A stretch of DNA of 64,000 nucleotides from Eubacteriales bacterium. GTDB lineage: Bacteria; Bacillota; Clostridia; Oscillospirales; CAG-382. Shown here in pieces: positions 17,053 to 28,256 of the stretch (the stretch's first letter is position 1; each line of letters starts with the position of its first letter). A model generated the notes under the pieces. The model made no database searches and was not told where the DNA came from. It worked only from the letters and a program-made list of their open reading frames with translations. Both the position numbers and the translations under genes were made by a program. The stretch is from positions 3,722 to 67,721 of the forward strand of contig JAZRGS010000031.1 of NCBI GenBank assembly GCA_045644305.1. The letters run 5' to 3'.

Positions 17053-18039
17053 TTATTTGTTCTTTTTGAAAATTTCCTTGTAGTCAGCAGCCGCGAAGAT
17101 ACTGCAAACGAGTACGATCAAGGCGTAAAGCACCGACATACCGGTAGGAAGCGTTTCCTTGAAGCTGAGCTCGAAAAGCCACATATAAACGGGAATATTG
17201 AAAACCAATGCCCATGCAGCGTAGGTTACGTTCAAAGCCATAGCCTTTGCCGCACCGATTTCGTTAATTGCCTTGTAATAGAAGAGGTAGGAAATAGTAG
17301 CAAACAAGCCTGCGATAACGATAACGGGAATAATCAAGCCGCTTACGCTGAAGTTGAAGAGCTCAGCGGTAATCTTCCAGCCCTCTACCAAGCTGTGGTT
17401 GCCGACACAAAGGCTTACAACGGGGATAAGTATAATGCCGTTAAATAATGCAGAGGTGGTCTGACGAATCTGCAACGCCTGCTCGTCGGTGACCTCGCCG
17501 TCCTTCATGCTCTTTGCAAGGATAACAGCCTCAATGCCCCAACCGAATGCGCAAAGCAACGCGCCGATAAAGCCAAGGAGGAAGTTTTCGGTTGCCATAC
17601 CGTCGGTAATACCGAGCGCGAATACGCCGCAGAGGGTGATTACCAAGAAGATCCACTGATACCACTTCATTCTTTCCTTCAAGAAGAAGTATGCGAGAAC
17701 CGTACCGATTGCAGGGAATATCGCGCTTGCAACAGCGCCCATAATACCCATGTAGTTAAGGCACATAACGTAGCCTGTCATACCGATAGGTCCGCCGATA
17801 ATTGCCGCAATTGCAACCCATTTGCCGCTCTTGGTCTTGAATGCATTCCAAACGTTCTTTATATTTCCGCGAACGCCGTTATAGGCAGTTGCGAAGATAG
17901 CCGAACAAAGGTCGTGAAGAAAGGTTGCAACCAACGGTGCGAGAAATGCGAAATCCGCCAACGGAGAAAGCGAAAGCGCGCCCCATAAGAGTGCGGTTTC
18001 TACTGCCCAGGTAATACCTGCGATAATGCCGGGAAACAT
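17053..18039 (-). CDS. DMT-superfamily permease, LicB-like putative choline transporter
   Basis: About 10 TM segments in 328 aa. It lies immediately downstream of the licA/licC-like genes. The substrate is inferred from context only. Confidence 0.5.
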   Translation of the reverse strand: MFPGIIAGITWAVETALLWGALSLSPLADFAFLAPLVATFLHDLCSAIFATAYNGVRGNIKNVWNAFKTKSGKWVAIAAIIGGPIGMTGYVMCLNYMGIMGAVASAIFPAIGTVLAYFFLKERMKWYQWIFLVITLCGVFALGITDGMATENFLLGFIGALLCAFGWGIEAVILAKSMKDGEVTDEQALQIRQTTSALFNGIILIPVVSLCVGNHSLVEGWKITAELFNFSVSGLIIPVIVIAGLFATISYLFYYKAINEIGAAKAMALNVTYAAWALVFNIPVYMWLFELSFKETLPTGMSVLYALIVLVCSIFAAADYKEIFKKNK

Positions 18040-19876: not shown

Positions 19877-22630
19877 TCAAGGCAATTCATGCTCCTTGAG
19901 CACGATCGAAGAACCGTAAATTTCCCAGTCGTTTCTGTCCCAAATGTCGTTGGTGATTGCCGCCCAACGTCCCGCCTTAAAGGTGTTTCCGTTATTCTTT
20001 GCGGGGTTCCATTCGTGCGAAAGCATGATCATCTGGTCGTGAGCATACTTTTCGTCGCTCGTGATAAGCTTACCGGTGAAGGGATTTACGGGGTTTGCAA
20101 TCGTGCCGTCAGTCGCGATGGTCGGAACGTCGGCGTTCGTCATAAACTCGTTAGAGGTGGTAAATGCACCGTTCGAGTTGAAATCCTTAACCATAAACAA
20201 CGGGAAGAAGTTAGACATATCGTCGCTTCCGTGAATAAGCTCTTTTGTCTGATTGAGATAATAGCCGTGGTCGGAAACGATTATGATCTTGGTGTTGTCG
20301 TAAACGCCCTCCTCGCGGAGCCAATCGAACCAATTGCCGAGCTCAACCAAGCTCGCGGCGTTGGACTGATAATGTGTAAGCTGTTCCTCATTCTTAATGT
20401 TGATCTTCTTACCGTTTAAGGTAAATCTGTCGGGATTCGACTTTTCGTATTCGGTATTATCGACATTACCCGAGGGAACAAACTGAGGCTCCTGCATCAT
20501 CATAGGCTCGTGCGGAGCATCGTTGTAAAGGAAGAAGAAATTCTTGGAATCGTCCTTCTTTATCTGAGCGATGTTATCCAGGTTACGAAGCACCTCAAAA
20601 GGCTCCATAAAGTTCTGCTTATAGCCCTGCGAGGTAGTCATACTCGTGACAACGTAGCTTGTGTATTCGCTGACGGTTGTTTCGTGGTAGCCGCCGCCGC
20701 CGTAAACCGCCTGCTGCATGAACAGCGGAAGCGTTTTCATATAAGCAAATGCAAACATATTGCGGTTATTACTGGTGATATAAGCTTCCTTCATATCGGA
20801 ATTACCGTAAGCACCCTCTGTCAAATAGGTCGAAATGCCTTCATAATCATCGTAAATCGACATATCGGGGATGTTCTGATAATTCGCATAGGGCGCGTCG
20901 CAAACGGTTACGTCAAAGCCGTTTTGCGAGAAAAGAACCGGCATAACAAGAAGCGATTCGTTATGCTTCTTCACAAGCTCCTCTGCATCGCGCTTGTTCA
21001 ATTCAACGGGGGTGTATTCATAACCGCCCATAAGTGCGGGCACCGCCATATTCGTATGGCCGCCGAAGGAAATAGTGTTGTTATAGAAGGTAAAGCCTTG
21101 ATATTTTTTATCAAGTCCCTCAACCTCGTTAAATATGTAGGGGACGTATTCCGCCATACCGCGGTCGAGCATAATTACGACGACGTTCTGACCGTTTTTG
21201 CTGAGATTGAACTTAGCAGCCGCGTCATCGATTTGACCGACCTTGACCGCCTTTACGGTTCTTCCGATAGCGATGCCGTTGATGCTCGCCATTACGAACA
21301 CCGCAAGCACGCCGGTAATAAGCACGGTTTTAACCTGCTTCGTCCATTTTGTGACGATAAAGAAAAGCAGGTAGGAAAGCGCAAGGATGACGATAAAGTT
21401 AATCGTTTGCTGCTTCATCGTGAAGTTAAAGCCGCTTAAATACTGAAGCTTGTTTGTAAGCATACCGAGCTTCGTGCCAAAGAACATATAGTTCACTACC
21501 GCACAGATGCTCATTATGAAGAGGGTACGCTCGAAAACAACCTTACCGTTGTCGCTCGCGAGCCAATAAAAGACGTTGAACCAAATAAGGAAGGTGCCTG
21601 CCGCAAAGGCAAACGCCGAAATCATAAACCAAAGCGGATGATAGAAATAGGTAATGTCGATATAATCGGTCGGAGACGCGTTGATAACGTTCGAAGGTAT
21701 CAGCAAGCCGATAACAACGGTCAGCAAGAGCGCCGAAAGAATAAACAGCTTCTTATCGGGCTTTGCGGTCGTAGGCTTGAATTCAAGCTTTAAGGTCTTG
21801 ACCAACAGCTTCCAAATCCAAGGGAGCTGAAGCGCAAATCCTATGATCCAAAGCGCCGATTTCGCCATCTCGTAGGCTTCGTTTTCGATAAGCAGGCTGC
21901 CCAAGATCGCACAGACACCCAAAGCCGCAACGAGCACAAGAATAACCTTTTTCGGGTTCTTAAGCTTGTAAAATACGTTCTTAATAAGCGAGAAAACGTT
22001 GTTAAGAGTCCAATAAAATACCAAGCCCGCGGGGGAATTATAAAGGAAAACGAGGAAGAAGATTGCAATGCCGTAAAGCTGAATCTTCGTCTTCAAGGGG
22101 AATCCCTTAAGATAAATAGCGCTCGAAATGACGTTGATAAGCGTCATAAGTATCGGCAAAAGGTTAAGAGCGATTCCGCCGATAAACAAAAGTCCGTCGG
22201 GGTCACCCAAATCGGCAATAGGGCCTAATTTCGCACCCTTCAACGCGGGAAGAGTCGATAAGAACTGATAAGCCGCCATAAAGAAGGGGATTTCAAGAAG
22301 AAGCGAAACCGAGCCCTTGAGCACGTCGGTCGGCTTATAGTTGTTTTGGCGATAATAGGTCTGAAGCATCATCATGCGTTCATCGCCCGAAAAGGTCTTC
22401 TTTATGTGGTCGACGCCGTCGCGAAGCTTTTCCTCGACGTCGCGCGCCTGCTCCTGCATCGCGTCAGCGCGGCGGTAAAGCGGAAGAACCAAAAGGTTCA
22501 TCGCGAGGGACAGCATTATAATCGCAATCGCAGGGTTGCCGGTGATATAATGCGCAAAGGTGAAAATATATTCAAAAACAAGCTTTAACGGACCGATAAG
22601 CAAGGTTTCGAGAATCTTAAAAAACGGCAT
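19877..22630 (-). CDS. Fusion protein: YidC/Oxa1-like insertase domain, polytopic segment and extracytoplasmic sulfatase/LtaS-like domain
   Basis: Residues 1-225 align by eye with SpoIIIJ/YidC (GNPAIAII...LPL..., SPAGLVFYWTLNNVFSLIKN). Residues ~490-917 resemble the alkaline-phosphatase superfamily (VVVIMLDRG, GGHTN, IIVSDHG). Confidence 0.6.
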   Translation of the reverse strand: MPFFKILETLLIGPLKLVFEYIFTFAHYITGNPAIAIIMLSLAMNLLVLPLYRRADAMQEQARDVEEKLRDGVDHIKKTFSGDERMMMLQTYYRQNNYKPTDVLKGSVSLLLEIPFFMAAYQFLSTLPALKGAKLGPIADLGDPDGLLFIGGIALNLLPILMTLINVISSAIYLKGFPLKTKIQLYGIAIFFLVFLYNSPAGLVFYWTLNNVFSLIKNVFYKLKNPKKVILVLVAALGVCAILGSLLIENEAYEMAKSALWIIGFALQLPWIWKLLVKTLKLEFKPTTAKPDKKLFILSALLLTVVIGLLIPSNVINASPTDYIDITYFYHPLWFMISAFAFAAGTFLIWFNVFYWLASDNGKVVFERTLFIMSICAVVNYMFFGTKLGMLTNKLQYLSGFNFTMKQQTINFIVILALSYLLFFIVTKWTKQVKTVLITGVLAVFVMASINGIAIGRTVKAVKVGQIDDAAAKFNLSKNGQNVVVIMLDRGMAEYVPYIFNEVEGLDKKYQGFTFYNNTISFGGHTNMAVPALMGGYEYTPVELNKRDAEELVKKHNESLLVMPVLFSQNGFDVTVCDAPYANYQNIPDMSIYDDYEGISTYLTEGAYGNSDMKEAYITSNNRNMFAFAYMKTLPLFMQQAVYGGGGYHETTVSEYTSYVVTSMTTSQGYKQNFMEPFEVLRNLDNIAQIKKDDSKNFFFLYNDAPHEPMMMQEPQFVPSGNVDNTEYEKSNPDRFTLNGKKINIKNEEQLTHYQSNAASLVELGNWFDWLREEGVYDNTKIIIVSDHGYYLNQTKELIHGSDDMSNFFPLFMVKDFNSNGAFTTSNEFMTNADVPTIATDGTIANPVNPFTGKLITSDEKYAHDQMIMLSHEWNPAKNNGNTFKAGRWAAITNDIWDRNDWEIYGSSIVLKEHELP

Positions 22631-23862: not shown

Positions 23863-24026
23863 AATTTTCTCCTTAACAAAGAGGTTTCGAATCGGCATAC
23901 CTGCCCTAATTTTAACTTATATTATATCACGAATTTTACTTAAAATCAATAGCAATTTAGTTGGTTATATTATTAATATGTAAACAAATATAAAAGGACG
24001 GCTTCCCGTCCTTTCGTTTGTTGTTA

Positions 24027-24734
24027 TTAATATCCGGTAACGAGTATAGCCGCAATAGCATCGACCCCGTGCACGCCCTTTGAAAGCGTTGTAAACGCGG
24101 TGGCATCCTTATCGACAAGCTCTGTGGCAGTCTCGATAAGCTCGTAAGCGTTATCGCTGTATTTATCCCAATCGATTATCGCCGAGCAAATAATGCATTT
24201 AGCGCCATTGATTGCGGTAAACGCCTCCATTTCTGCCTTCACCGAAGCCATATCGCCCTCAAAGCGTTTGAAATTCGCCTTGCCGCAATTGCTCAAAAGT
24301 CCGCTTATATCCTCCATATCCGCACCGATGAGTGATTCGGTGTACATCGGCTGCATAATACATTCCGCGACGCTTTTTGCCTCGCACTCGCTTTCTGTAT
24401 TAACCACACAATCGCAAGCAGACGTTATCTTGTCAACGCTGCCCTTGACCAAGGCAACCGTCGTTTTCTTTTCCTTTTTCGCAACAGAAGCGATCGAATT
24501 GACGGCGTCCAAGCCCTCCTCGGAATCGGCAACGACGATGATAAGCTGAGTATTGTTAAGCAGCGCCTTCGTCACAAAATCCGAAACCTTAACGTCGGAC
24601 ATAACGAATTTCAATCGATCCTCGCCCGAAAATCCATCGATTTCGGAATATAGATTCGCGGAGATGTATTTAACCGCCTGCGCGCCGTAATTGCCGACGC
24701 CGATAATTTTTGTGTTTTGAGAAATCTGTTCCAT
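24027..24734 (-). CDS. Hypothetical protein with a degenerate FtsZ/tubulin-like (Rossmann-type) N-terminus
   Basis: KIIGVGNYGAQAVKYI resembles FtsZ IGVGGGGxNAV. Downstream blocks are collinear with FtsZ, but the GGGTGTG (T4) signature is absent (ADSEEGLDA instead). Confidence 0.35.
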   Translation of the reverse strand: MEQISQNTKIIGVGNYGAQAVKYISANLYSEIDGFSGEDRLKFVMSDVKVSDFVTKALLNNTQLIIVVADSEEGLDAVNSIASVAKKEKKTTVALVKGSVDKITSACDCVVNTESECEAKSVAECIMQPMYTESLIGADMEDISGLLSNCGKANFKRFEGDMASVKAEMEAFTAINGAKCIICSAIIDWDKYSDNAYELIETATELVDKDATAFTTLSKGVHGVDAIAAILVTGY

Positions 24735-24786
24735 TTTGTTGCCTCTTTAAAGAAGCTGTTGCGTAAAACGCAACAGCTTACTTTTA

Positions 24787-25926
24787 TTATAAAAATCTGT
24801 TCTTCAAGATGGTTACTGCGATGAGCACGATAAGGAAGGAGGTATTGACAAGCGTGAACTTGATCATATACTTCTTCAAGCCGCCGGGCTGATGCTTCAA
24901 AAATTCCTTCAAGGTGATAAGGCTTGCAAGCGAAGAAATAATGATACCGAGCGAGCCGATATTTACCGCAACAAGCAAATCGCTGTAATTGTTCGTAAAC
25001 TTCGAAAGGAATATCGCAGTCGGTACGTTACTGATAAACTGACAGGAAACGATACCCGCAACGAGCGTGTTGTTTTGAACGATATCCGCGATAAAGTTCT
25101 GAATAGCGGGGATTCTCGCCATATTGCCCGAGAAGACAAAGAATACGCAGAAGGTAGCCAAAAGCGCATAGTCAACCTGCGCAAAGCGCTTTCTGTCGAC
25201 GATAAGCACGGTGAGAATTACCGCAGCCAGCGTGATAAGGTGAGGAATCACGCGGAAAATACTCAAAATAACGATTACGAAAAGAACAATGTAAAACGAA
25301 AGCTCTTTTTTCTTGATGTCGAACTTCTCGTCGTTCTTCAAGACAAGTGTTTCGTTCTTGATGAAAAGTCTTACACAAAGGAAAAGACCGAGTGCAACGG
25401 TGACCATCTGCAGGAAGAGAACGCCGCAGAATTCAAGCGTCGGAACGTTGTAGAAATTGTAAATGTACATGTTCTGGGGGTTACCGTGAGGTGTAACCAT
25501 ACCGCCCATGTTTGCCGCGATAGTCTGCATAATAAAGGTTATTGCAAGATATTTATCGTTGCCCGTCGAGTGAAGCACGATAAAGGTAAGCGGCAGGAAG
25601 GTGATAAGCGACATATCGTTCGCAACGATCATATCGAACAAAAAGGTTCCGTAAATCAATGCGTAAACGACAGCGCGTCTTGTTTTAAAGAGGCCGATCA
25701 TGGTTCTCGAAACAAGCTCAAAGACGTTGGTATTCTTCAAACCCGCAACAACCGCGAGCATACAGAAGAGAAGAACGAGCGTCTTAACCTCAAAATAATT
25801 GAGATATTCTGCGTCGGGGGGAATTATGAAGCAGGTCACGATCATAAAAACGATAGCGATCGATAAAACGACCTCTTTCTTCATAAAGCCCCAAACGGCG
25901 TTTTTAATCTTTGCAAATGAACTCAT
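24787..25926 (-). CDS. ArsB/NhaD-superfamily (CitMHS-like) anion permease
   Basis: About 10-11 TM segments and a GNPQN motif. GGAGG lies 5 nt before the ATG at 25926, which is 20 nt downstream of the TIR-LRR stop codon. Confidence 0.6.
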   Translation of the reverse strand: MSSFAKIKNAVWGFMKKEVVLSIAIVFMIVTCFIIPPDAEYLNYFEVKTLVLLFCMLAVVAGLKNTNVFELVSRTMIGLFKTRRAVVYALIYGTFLFDMIVANDMSLITFLPLTFIVLHSTGNDKYLAITFIMQTIAANMGGMVTPHGNPQNMYIYNFYNVPTLEFCGVLFLQMVTVALGLFLCVRLFIKNETLVLKNDEKFDIKKKELSFYIVLFVIVILSIFRVIPHLITLAAVILTVLIVDRKRFAQVDYALLATFCVFFVFSGNMARIPAIQNFIADIVQNNTLVAGIVSCQFISNVPTAIFLSKFTNNYSDLLVAVNIGSLGIIISSLASLITLKEFLKHQPGGLKKYMIKFTLVNTSFLIVLIAVTILKNRFL

Positions 25927-25946
25927 CTTTTCCTCCAAAAAGCCGA

Positions 25947-27599
25947 TCAGTCGTCGACCTTTTCACCGATTCTCGCTTCCTTGATGCCGTTGCGGCGGCA
26001 GTATTCCTGAGCAAGAGAGCCTTCGTTACAGTAAACCACGACCTTGTCCTCGCATCCGTCGAACATACCCCAGCCCATGTCCTTGACCGAGTCGGGAATG
26101 ATAACGGTGTCAAGGCTGGTACAGCCTCTGAACGCGCAGTCGTCGATCTTGGTTACGCTATCGGGAATTTCGATTTCGTCGAGAAGCGTACAGTTGCAGA
26201 ACGCACCTTCACCGATTTCGTTAACGCTGTCGGGCATGGTGATTCTGTTAAGCTTCTTACTGTCGCAGAATGCCCAGTCGCTGATAACGGTTACGCTGTC
26301 GGGAATGTCATACTGAACCTCACGGCTGTTCGCGGGGTATGCAATAAGCGTCGATTTGTTCTTGTTGAAAAGAACGTAGTCGTTACCGTCGCGCTTGTTG
26401 GGTTCGGACTTGTAGTGCATATTCTTGGGCTCAACACGAATCGACTTCATGTTTTCACAGCCTCTGAAGGGAGCGTCGGAGATAGAGATAACCGATGCGG
26501 GAATGGTTACGTTGGTAAGCGATTTGCAGTTCTTGAACGCGCTCTTACCGATCTTGCGCAAGCCTGCGGGAAGCTCGATGGAAGCAAGGCTGATGCAGCC
26601 GTTGAACACAAGGTCGTCGATCTTGGTTACGTTCGAGGGAATTACAACCTTTTCAAGACCTACACAGTCGGAGAATGCGTTTTCACCGATAATCGTAAGT
26701 CTTTCGGGGAGCTTGATCGATTTCAAGCTCTTACAGGAGTTAAATACACCGCCGTAGAGCTCGGTAAGTCCGTCGGGAAGGGTTACGTCCTCAAGCGTTG
26801 CGCAGTTTTCAAACGCGCGCTCGCCGATCTTGATAAAATCGTTTTCAACAACAAGCTTGGTCATCGCAACACAGTCGCGATATGCGCTTTCGCCGACTCT
26901 GCCGGTCTTTGCGGGGATGCGCATTTCCTTAAGCTTGTTACAGCCTCTGAATGCCTCCTCCTCGATTTCCTCCAAGGATTCGGGAAGAGTGATGTTCTTC
27001 AATTGGGTTCTCGACTTAAATGCACCCGCACAAATTACGCGCACGCCCTCGTCAACGTCGATAGTTTCGCCGTTGTCCTCACACTTTGTAAGTCTGCCCT
27101 CGTCAAGCGTGAGTCTGTCCATCGCTTCGGCAGGAAGATCGCGCACCATCGACTTGATAAGCTTATCCATGTCGTCGGCGTTGCTGTGGTGGGTGTTGTT
27201 AAGGAGAATTTCAAACGCAGGAGGAACAGCGGTTTCGGAATCGAGGAAGATCGGATAAAGACGCTTGCCGTTTTCGCGTGCGCAGATGATTTCCATACCG
27301 CAGAAAGGCGAATTCATCGATGCATCGGATACGAAAAGCACGACAGCCGAGCAGTTTTCGATTCTCTTGCGAAGCTCATCTCTGAAGTCGTTGCCGTTTT
27401 CGCAGGATTCATCATACCAGATGCGGTACTTTCTGTCGTGCAACGCATCAAGAATGGGATAAACCTGCGCTGTATCTCTGTGAGAATAGGAAATAAACAA
27501 ATAGGGTTCGGTGCCGTTGTATGCCTCGAACTTGGTGAATACCAAAGGAAATTCATCATTTACGGTTTTGGTGGTCTTCTTAACGGTTTGATTTGCCAT
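25947..27599 (-). CDS. Cytoplasmic TIR-domain protein fused to about 12 BspA-type leucine-rich repeats
   Basis: AGGAGG lies 8 nt before the ATG at 27599. TIR motifs: YLFISYSHRD...RIWYDE...VVLFVS..S..SPFCGMEI. These are followed by repeated IP.SV..I...AF..C..L units. No signal peptide. Confidence 0.8.
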   Translation of the reverse strand: MANQTVKKTTKTVNDEFPLVFTKFEAYNGTEPYLFISYSHRDTAQVYPILDALHDRKYRIWYDESCENGNDFRDELRKRIENCSAVVLFVSDASMNSPFCGMEIICARENGKRLYPIFLDSETAVPPAFEILLNNTHHSNADDMDKLIKSMVRDLPAEAMDRLTLDEGRLTKCEDNGETIDVDEGVRVICAGAFKSRTQLKNITLPESLEEIEEEAFRGCNKLKEMRIPAKTGRVGESAYRDCVAMTKLVVENDFIKIGERAFENCATLEDVTLPDGLTELYGGVFNSCKSLKSIKLPERLTIIGENAFSDCVGLEKVVIPSNVTKIDDLVFNGCISLASIELPAGLRKIGKSAFKNCKSLTNVTIPASVISISDAPFRGCENMKSIRVEPKNMHYKSEPNKRDGNDYVLFNKNKSTLIAYPANSREVQYDIPDSVTVISDWAFCDSKKLNRITMPDSVNEIGEGAFCNCTLLDEIEIPDSVTKIDDCAFRGCTSLDTVIIPDSVKDMGWGMFDGCEDKVVVYCNEGSLAQEYCRRNGIKEARIGEKVDD

Positions 27600-27886
27600 T
27601 GCGGTAACCTCCTGAAAATTTATAAGAATGCGCCTTACGCCTTTTATTAATGATACATTATAACACTTTGCCCCTCGGTTGTCAATCAATTATAACCCTT
27701 TTTTGTCATTTTTTGTACATATTAAATACAATTCCCACGCCTTTTGCACCCTTTGTACCCCTTTAACCGCGACACAACCAACGGTAGAGCGTTTTTGCTT
27801 GACTTCAGCCGTCCCAAGTGATAAAATAAAAACAACGAACGACTGCAGGCGTTTGTTGTAAATCAATACGAAAGGAGGGGCAGTAT

Positions 27887-28052: not shown

Positions 28053-28256
28053 ATGATTCTGCCCATCGGCGAAAACATCAAAGCCTTAAGAATCGAAGCG
28101 GGGTTGACTCAACGCGCGCTCGCACATAAATTATGTGTCAGCATGCAAGCGGTTTCAAAATGGGAAATAGGCACTTCCTACCCCGATATCACCCTGCTCC
28201 CGCAAATCGCAAATCTGTTTTCGGTCACGGTAGATAGGCTGTTTACAGAAAAATAG
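28053..28256 (+). CDS. XRE-family helix-turn-helix regulator
   Basis: AGGAGG lies upstream, and LTQRALAHKLCVSMQAVSKWE is an HTH motif. Confidence 0.75.
   Translation: MILPIGENIKALRIEAGLTQRALAHKLCVSMQAVSKWEIGTSYPDITLLPQIANLFSVTVDRLFTEK

Follow-up and report, generated by a model that had tools for sequence, protein, structure and literature searches.

A miniaturised FtsZ paralogue lacking the nucleotide-holding loops of FtsZ, encoded behind a TIR-LRR gene and a permease gene in a Clostridia genome

The window analysed here is a stretch of 64,000 nucleotides (nt) from the genome of an uncultured Clostridia bacterium of the gut (Eubacteriales bacterium, Oscillospirales, CAG-382; assembly GCA_045644305.1, contig JAZRGS010000031.1, positions 3,722 to 67,721 of the forward strand). 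On its minus strand three genes follow one another head to tail: one for a protein in which a TIR domain is fused to leucine-rich repeats (TIR-LRR), one for a CitMHS-type permease, and one for a protein of 235 amino acids (aa), which is the subject of this report (Table 1). We found that this protein is a miniaturised paralogue derived from FtsZ proper, a member of the FtsZ/tubulin superfamily by both fold and homology, and we refer to it as mini-FtsZ. As read from the alignment, every loop with which FtsZ holds its nucleotide has been deleted or rewritten in mini-FtsZ, which retains the aspartates of loop T7 and the C-terminal domain.

Table 1. Genes, transcription signals and loop remnants at the mini-FtsZ locus (window positions).
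Feature	Position	Strand	Description
Promoter-like site TTGACA-17 nt-(TG)TATAAT	27657..27685	-	upstream of TIR-LRR; 12/12 consensus positions, extended -10 TG
TIR-LRR gene, 550 aa	25947..27599	-	TIR_2 domain and BspA-type LRR_5 repeats; no signal peptide noted
Weak promoter-like match, 9/12	27439-27411	-	within TIR-LRR
CitMHS-type permease gene, 379 aa	24787..25926	-	PF03600, 3.5e-28; GGAGG Shine-Dalgarno before ATG
Weak promoter-like match, 9/12	25655-25628	-	within permease
Intercistronic hairpin	24753..24779	-	11-bp stem, 5-nt loop, no U-tract
Mini-FtsZ gene, 235 aa	24027..24734	-	FtsZ homologue without nucleotide pocket; last gene of the unit
T1 remnant GVGNYG (GxGxxG)	24684..24701	-	replaces FtsZ GVGGGG
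T4 place, DSEEG	24513..24527	-	replaces GMGGGTGTG; D70 invariant in 9/9
T7 loop GADMED	24309..24326	-	aligned to FtsZ NLDFAD
Intrinsic terminator-like hairpin and UUUUAUAUUUG	23992..24015	-	directly past the mini-FtsZ stop

Ordinary domain annotation does not recognise mini-FtsZ, which matches no Pfam family above threshold. The FtsZ domains PF00091 and PF12327 were matched by none of the nine members of its family (described below), even at E values of up to 10, and Tubulin_2 reached only E values of 0.018-0.13 in five of the nine, below the cut-off (11.9 bits against 27 in mini-FtsZ). A sequence search of the PDB with a five-sequence profile gave only a chance-level match (E = 0.38). Using the single sequence as query against a collection of 5.8 billion clusters, five proteins, the window's own included, were found at E ≤ 1e-3 among 500 candidates, and HMMER, run over the full set of 1.84 billion representatives, gave five relatives with 28-55% identity. 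When a profile of nine family sequences was used, 98 of 7126 candidates matched at E ≤ 0.01, and genuine FtsZ proteins were among them at E values of 1e-11 to 1e-2; the 98 consisted of seven family members, one protein of intermediate form (P0010) and 90 proteins carrying both PF00091 and PF12327. Alignment of the family with an 11-sequence FtsZ alignment by hhalign gave a probability of 98.4% (E = 6.1e-15, 225 columns), with family residues 6-237 collinear with FtsZ residues 13-314, that is, with the whole globular core. Against the genome's own FtsZ alone the score was 92.4% (E = 5e-7).

Because five of the nine members gave sub-threshold matches to the SIS domain in Pfam, hhalign was also run as a control against the genome's own SIS-domain protein. 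The score was 0.8%, compared with 92-98% for FtsZ, and the SIS match of mini-FtsZ itself (PF01380, 16.9 bits; cut-off 25) involved only a 67-residue beta-alpha-beta stretch. An SIS, Rossmann or SLOG-like origin was rejected on these grounds, as it is the entire two-domain core of FtsZ that is matched. The original prediction, based on five peptide blocks which are all present in the 235-aa reading frame, had proposed an FtsZ/tubulin fold and, as an alternative, a Rossmann/SLOG-like sensor; the former proved correct, and the latter can be set aside.

The predicted structure led to the same assignment. An AlphaFold2 model built from 14 sequences reached a predicted local distance difference test (pLDDT) score of 87.2 and a predicted template modelling (pTM) score of 0.88, with the C-terminal domain modelled confidently. 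This model superseded an earlier one from five close sequences, which was poor (pLDDT 56.7) and still had FtsZ as its top structural match (E = 2.7e-4). The two-domain FtsZ/tubulin architecture, with an N-terminal Rossmann-like sheet, the core helix H7 and the C-terminal domain, was present. In a Foldseek comparison with the PDB all 50 rows listed were FtsZ (best E value 1.2e-12, template modelling (TM) scores 0.78-0.80). VIA-align 2, which works independently of Foldseek, compared the model with 48,161 chains and also placed FtsZ at the top (2vaw_A, Z 23.2, root-mean-square deviation 2.6 Å, 224 of 235 residues aligned), followed by CetZ (Z 16.8), tubulins (14-15) and TubZ/PhuZ (13-14). In a library of viral structures, only full-size phage FtsZ, tubulin and PhuZ proteins were matched, with TM scores of 0.56-0.62. 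Taking sequence and structure together, we regard the FtsZ-derived fold of mini-FtsZ as virtually certain.

The state of each loop was then read off the hhalign alignment and the aligned sequences of the nine members. In FtsZ, loops T2/T3, T5 and T6-H7 touch the phosphate, ribose and base of the nucleotide. Relative to FtsZ, mini-FtsZ has deletions of about 29 residues in T2-H2-T3, 2 in T4, 15 in T5 and 24 in T6-H6 and the start of H7, and its aligned core is about 76 residues shorter (net). The canonical glycine-rich T1 (GGGGxN) was not found in mini-FtsZ: GVGGGGGN of FtsZ has become GVGNYGAQ, in which G12, G14 and G17 are invariant in all nine members, the Asn is lost, and the fourth position, a Tyr in mini-FtsZ, is aromatic or Val throughout the family. 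The tubulin signature GGGTG(S/T)G was present in none of the nine, and the acidic DSEEG occupies the aligned position. In T7, D142 is kept in nine of nine members and D139 in eight. Loop T7 of one FtsZ subunit inserts into the GTP site of its neighbour, and its aspartates act in trans only. The C-terminal end of mini-FtsZ aligns to FtsZ residue 314, the end of the last strand, and the protein therefore has neither the linker nor the C-terminal peptide. It had been proposed that the protein might be a pseudo-GTPase in which the signature GGGTGTG is replaced and about 50 residues of the T2-T3 region are missing; the pseudo-GTPase and the replaced signature agree with our alignment and fold, and the single gap of 50 residues gives way to the four deletions above. 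With the loops in this state, mini-FtsZ probably does not bind GTP in the canonical manner.

The family to which mini-FtsZ belongs is small, comprising nine clusters at 90% identity together with P0010, all of them metagenomic; where the source names an organism, it is a 'Clostridia bacterium' metagenome-assembled genome (MAG). Members as distant as 22-30% identity share a length of 233-246 aa, the deletions and the invariant residues. P0010 (337 aa, metagenomic) is the nearest relative outside the nine clusters and matches the family profile with an E value of 1e-11. It resembles mini-FtsZ in a GxGxYG T1 and in the lack of the T4 signature, and has an intact T7 (GLDFADV). FtsZ_C is its only Pfam match, its C-terminal domain is 32% identical to that of FtsZ, its match to FtsZ has a probability of 99.3%, and its tail SPAFIRP resembles the PxFLRR end of the FtsZ alignment. 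P0010 is thus less reduced than mini-FtsZ, differing from it in a T5-H5 region of retained length, a strongly FtsZ-like C-terminal domain and the tail, and it is possibly an evolutionary intermediate.

Further searches added little to the family. An enlarged alignment (A4) gave 44 matches, consisting of six family members, P0010 and 37 FtsZ proteins, with no new member among them. The family profile was also applied to genome sets which are samples, so that the results below mean 'not found in those searched' and not 'absent'. In the class sample (399 genomes scored) it matched the window's own genome and gave three weaker matches in frames of 364-401 aa, which we take to be FtsZ itself; in the order sample (401 genomes, among them 8 from the genus of the window's organism and 26 from its family) and in the phylum sample (401 genomes) it matched the window's own genome only. 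Two scans of metagenome contigs (patterns A1 and A5) found no relative of mini-FtsZ, tblastn of phage and plasmid collections gave no match to it, and a scan of genome contigs gave one locus, a syntenic one from a Clostridia MAG record (JAFXDO010000027.1), hereafter L003. The nearest clusters in the ESM Atlas (221-241 aa, 62-105 members, Bacillota, score 0.92-0.94) carry automatic names such as 'putative cell division protein FtsZ', a hint that HMMER may have reached only part of the short FtsZ-like proteins that exist. In the literature covered, including the accessible part of a 2023 family survey (PMC9871819) and with most subscription journals outside that coverage, no pocket-less FtsZ of this kind was described. 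A survey that relies on domain matches would probably overlook the family, since neither PF00091 nor PF12327 recognises any of the nine members.

Comparison with L003 allowed us to examine selection on the gene. The ratio of nonsynonymous to synonymous divergence (dN/dS) was 0.147 for mini-FtsZ and 0.05-0.10, about 1.5- to 3-fold lower, for seven neighbouring genes. Mini-FtsZ is also the least conserved protein of the locus, with 71.5% identity to its L003 counterpart, compared with 92.2% for TIR-LRR, 92.6% for the permease and 84-98% for the envelope genes, and contigs of two gut metagenome runs carried more differences over mini-FtsZ than over its neighbours. Judged by these substitution rates, mini-FtsZ is clearly under purifying selection and is not a pseudogene. 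In the same comparison, a licB-like EamA gene (window 17053-18039, minus strand; L003:14695-15681) was 98.5% identical with a synonymous divergence (dS) of 0.13, against 0.6-1.1 in adjacent genes, which suggests recent recombination or exchange at that end of the locus.

The sequence around the three genes is consistent with a single transcription unit. The TIR-LRR stop codon TGA lies at 25949-25947 and the permease ATG at 25926, leaving a gap of exactly 20 nt (TCGGCTTTTTGGAGGAAAAG) that contains GGAGG; the permease stop lies at 24789-24787 and the mini-FtsZ ATG at 24734, a gap of exactly 52 nt. Mini-FtsZ has a Shine-Dalgarno sequence of its own. A promoter-like site at 27685-27657 that agrees with the consensus throughout is followed by AGGAGG, 8 nt upstream of the ATG at 27599, and the TIR-LRR protein is therefore 550 and not 580 aa long; its start is most likely this ATG and not, as formerly assigned, the TTG at 27689. 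Between this promoter and mini-FtsZ, the only other promoter-like sites on the same strand are the two weak ones in Table 1. The hairpin past the mini-FtsZ stop (free energy (dG) -16.1, z -6.61) has a stem that is conserved in L003, and the gene beyond it has a promoter-like site of its own. Given promoter, spacing and terminator, the three genes are probably co-transcribed as one unit. The original prediction had anticipated this for TIR-LRR and the permease, and both spacers that it described, one of 20 nt with a Shine-Dalgarno sequence and one of 52 nt with a hairpin, were exact in position and sequence.

The hairpin in the second spacer deserves separate description. Its 11-bp stem (AAGCUGUUGCG/CGCAACAGCUU) has a dG of -20.9 kcal/mol and a z of -4.95, and none of 200 shuffled sequences was as stable. 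It is followed by CUUUAAAG, in which CUUU is all that resembles a U-tract, so that, as had been noted, no real one is present. In L003 the stem is identical at 22 of 22 nt and the loop differs, against a synonymous divergence of 0.6-1.1 per site in the flanking genes. Membership in one of the repeat families of the genome was considered and rejected; the 1.53-Mb assembly contains a single copy of the hairpin. We read it as a selected RNA structure, presumably non-terminating or partly terminating, placed before the last gene.

Concerning the first gene of the unit, the TIR-LRR protein matches TIR_2 (1.4e-18, 68 bits), LRR_5 (3.2e-81) and, just above the cut-off, ThsB_TIR (22.9 bits against 21.2), and PADLOC returned TIR-class matches for it and none for the permease or mini-FtsZ. 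In PDB matches that are weak (E = 0.016-0.07), Glu103 of the TIR domain aligns with the Glu of the WCxxEL stretch of RPV1 and AT1G72930 and with one Glu of AbTIR, residues that are catalytic in those proteins. Among the 12 neighbouring proteins scanned, SIR2, Macro and SLOG domains were not found, and with them the ThsB and ThsA pairing of Thoeris. The same genome has a second TIR gene on another contig (C61:5584-5913, minus strand; locus L047), a 349-aa frame 39% identical to the TIR domain of the window. Upstream of the TIR-LRR promoter and divergent from it lies a gene for a 67-aa XRE-type helix-turn-helix protein (window 28053-28256, plus strand); the corresponding position in L003 is taken up by some 4 kb, in which a two-component system is encoded.

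The permease, previously described as of the ArsB/NhaD type, is assigned by Pfam to CitMHS (PF03600, 99.1 bits against a cut-off of 31.9, 288 residues covered), which belongs to the same transporter superfamily as ArsB/NhaD. The permease has relatives, at 44-50% identity and in one case 33%, in 41 of 61 genomes from the taxonomic family. At eight such loci inspected, neither a TIR gene nor mini-FtsZ adjoins the permease; its neighbour is a divergent two-component system at two of them and a convergent LRR_5 protein lacking a TIR domain at another, and at the remaining loci the neighbours are unrelated. Most of these relatives thus stand by themselves or next to a two-component system. An OmpR-type response regulator and a histidine kinase are divergent from the permease, or from its unit, at L003:2173-3905 and L030:3108-4854 (both minus strand), the response regulator of the system upstream of the L003 unit being 48% identical to that of L030. 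The two-component system may be the real regulatory partner of the permease, and is not found at this place in the window. At a further locus (L032:4119-4793, minus strand) a response regulator lies beside a permease relative, and a 362-aa reading frame adjoins it.

Whether the three genes form a module was judged from their conservation, as the original prediction had envisaged. The full arrangement recurs in L003, and contigs of metagenome runs X2 and X3 bridge an envelope gene, mini-FtsZ and the permease, as well as the permease, TIR-LRR and its upstream region; because L003, X2 and X3 are close relatives, this recurrence is explained by synteny by descent. Outside these relatives the trio was not seen at the loci inspected. 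A TIR domain search of 121 genomes of the family gave a match in 11, and only G840, from another genus (g224), had one of ortholog grade. Its TIR-LRR gene (L048:425-1304, contig C38) is broken, with residues 3-89 and 355-550 in different frames (60% and 73% identity, respectively) and about 265 residues missing, and the ATG of an intact permease gene overlaps the stop of the remnant; mini-FtsZ was not found within the 9 kb fetched. The TIR-LRR remnant abuts an intact permease, and the TIR-LRR/permease junction is therefore older than the species group. The permease of G840 survives without a working TIR-LRR, and the addition of mini-FtsZ was seen in a single narrow lineage only. At three loci fetched for other TIR paralogues of the family, no permease lies beside the TIR gene. 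Since the trio was seen only in near relatives, and G840 showed no mini-FtsZ within those 9 kb, a functional tie of mini-FtsZ to the TIR protein is no more than a possibility, and a somewhat weakened one.

Beyond the unit, the locus continues into a teichoic-acid/choline-type envelope cluster. This contains a Glyphos_transf gene and then genes for a choline kinase, a nucleotidyl transferase and the EamA transporter, which presumably correspond to licA, licC and licB. Within the cluster, a gene on the minus strand at window 19877-22630 encodes a protein of 917 aa that joins a YidC/60KD_IMP insertase domain (residues 35-221) to a sulfatase-type domain (481-801), and is 90% identical in L003.

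What might an FtsZ without its nucleotide pocket do? Taking into account that the T7 aspartates are kept in a protein without a nucleotide site of its own, the simplest explanation is that its partner is a genuine, GTP-bound FtsZ. We propose that mini-FtsZ would be unable to bind GTP or to polymerise alone, and that its T7 face would dock onto the GTP-bearing face of genuine FtsZ, either at a filament end or on monomers. Once docked, it would represent a one-sided subunit that cannot be extended, and would therefore cap or destabilise filaments or trigger hydrolysis, with the outcome that Z-ring dynamics would be tuned or blocked. The conserved hairpin and the distal position of the gene might keep the dose of mini-FtsZ low relative to the products of the upstream genes. 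That FtsZ copies can take regulatory roles is suggested by Agrobacterium, where, according to the accessible part of the report, a truncated FtsZ paralogue inhibits division when expressed continuously (PMC13732431). From the sequence features described, mini-FtsZ probably regulates division filaments rather than building them. Our preferred reading is that it would do so by acting directly on FtsZ as a one-sided regulator or cap, and we put this forward tentatively, as a serious possibility that stops short of being probable. If it were true, mini-FtsZ would be a natural 'half-subunit', a tool with which to probe filament polarity, capping and treadmilling, and would represent a novel means by which bacteria, or elements that reside in them, control division.

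Several observations weigh against this proposal. The Asn of T7 (N208 in FtsZ) is replaced in all nine members, by Gly in seven, Ala in one and Glu in one. The invariant T1 glycines and D70 leave room for a remodelled pocket that could still bind some ligand. The divergence of mini-FtsZ is as compatible with relaxed constraint or an arms race as it is with a housekeeping regulator, and no division genes are found around it, the surroundings being those of an envelope cluster. A complex prediction that combined mini-FtsZ with the genome's own FtsZ core, GTP and Mg reached a score of 0.01, the mark being 0.32; this gave no verdict and counts neither way.

The invariant GxGxxG and D70 could also be accommodated by a role of mini-FtsZ as receiver or effector of the TIR protein, in which TIR-LRR would sense through its repeats and make an NAD-derived nucleotide, and mini-FtsZ would bind this in the GxGxxG pocket and then act, for instance on FtsZ or the permease. 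The shared transcription unit, the alignment of Glu103 with the Glu of plant TIR domains and AbTIR, the marginal ThsB_TIR match and the TIR-class matches in PADLOC are in line with such a scheme, as are a weak match to TrkA_N (2.3e-4) in one family member and a weak match to an NAD-binding domain (2.5e-3) in one. The comparative data point the other way: the trio was seen only in near relatives, G840 has an intact permease beside its broken TIR-LRR and no mini-FtsZ within the 9 kb fetched, PADLOC returned nothing for mini-FtsZ or the permease, none of the 12 neighbouring proteins scanned has a known Thoeris effector domain, and the surroundings are those of the cell envelope and not of a defence island. 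We consider this role unlikely. A combination of the two ideas, a new kind of conflict module in which the cytoplasmic TIR-LRR would detect an invader, the NAD-derived signal would bind the GxGxxG pocket of mini-FtsZ, and the T7 face would cap FtsZ and arrest division, seems very improbable to us; if true, the cell would have turned its own division protein into an abortive-infection effector.

Within the unit, mini-FtsZ comes directly after the permease. This order, together with the GxGxxG motif and the TrkA_N match, could instead indicate a soluble, cytoplasmic regulatory subunit that gates the permease upon binding a metabolite, like regulators of the RCK/TrkA type. None of the eight permease loci inspected has an adjoining mini-FtsZ-like gene, the partner that recurs being the divergent two-component system (two of the eight and L003). 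The conserved hairpin separates the two genes, and the kept FtsZ C-terminal domain and T7 aspartates would be left without a role. This, too, appears to us an unlikely explanation. Finally, the fastest rate of evolution in the locus, and a tiny, sporadic family found in the window's own genome only among 399, 401 and 401 sampled genomes, might reflect a decaying or functionless FtsZ duplicate in a variable locus. Against this stand the dN/dS value, a 235-aa frame intact in both genomes, the retention of length, deletions and invariant residues in the most distant members, the confident structural model, and the gene's own Shine-Dalgarno sequence and terminator, and we consider decay highly improbable. 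The probability that remains is left to a role outside our preferred reading and these three alternatives.

FtsZ-family proteins are defined by GTP-dependent polymerisation. Mini-FtsZ has in common with canonical FtsZ the two-domain fold, the collinear core, the T7 aspartates and the C-terminal domain, and differs in lacking the T4 signature, the glycine-rich T1, the linker and the C-terminal peptide and in failing the Pfam thresholds. The accessible part of a previous survey describes FtsZl1 and FtsZl2 as divergent, sporadic members of the FtsZ-tubulin superfamily missed by ordinary annotation, a likeness to mini-FtsZ; these proteins keep GGGTG(S/T)G and carry a long C-terminal coiled coil or an extra domain, and FtsZl1 is without a recognisable T6-H7 and FtsZ C-terminal domain (Makarova & Koonin 2010, PMC2875224). 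As far as that description goes, the loss in mini-FtsZ is the opposite one, the signature being gone and T7 and the C-terminal domain kept in a protein of 235 aa without extension. The genome of the window also encodes, on another contig (C75, L035:956-4555, minus strand), a protein of 1199 aa that begins with a Tubulin_2 domain at its N-terminus (PF13809, 1.2e-54; PF00091 below the cut-off) and has an FtsZl1-type architecture, so that with FtsZ and mini-FtsZ it has three genes of the FtsZ superfamily.

Agrobacterium FtsZ1 and FtsZ3 (Hyphomicrobiales) resemble mini-FtsZ in being additional copies of FtsZ whose C-terminal part is incomplete, and in that one of them, which inhibits division when expressed continuously, has a regulatory and not a structural role (PMC13732431). 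They are termed 'FtsZ GTPase' duplications there, so that the GTPase domain is evidently kept, whereas mini-FtsZ has lost the loops, is much smaller and comes from Clostridia. With Thoeris the unit shares a TIR domain matching ThsB_TIR and the presence of further genes; it differs in the fusion of TIR to BspA-type leucine-rich repeats and in the lack of SIR2, Macro and SLOG in the 12 neighbours. A purely functional analogy exists with end-binders and inhibitors of FtsZ such as SulA and MipZ, which the proposed mini-FtsZ cap would resemble in occupying one longitudinal face or one end of FtsZ; the SulA:FtsZ complex (1ofu) was among the PDB rows returned by Foldseek. The folds of SulA and MipZ are unrelated to it, and the cap proposed here would itself be derived from FtsZ.

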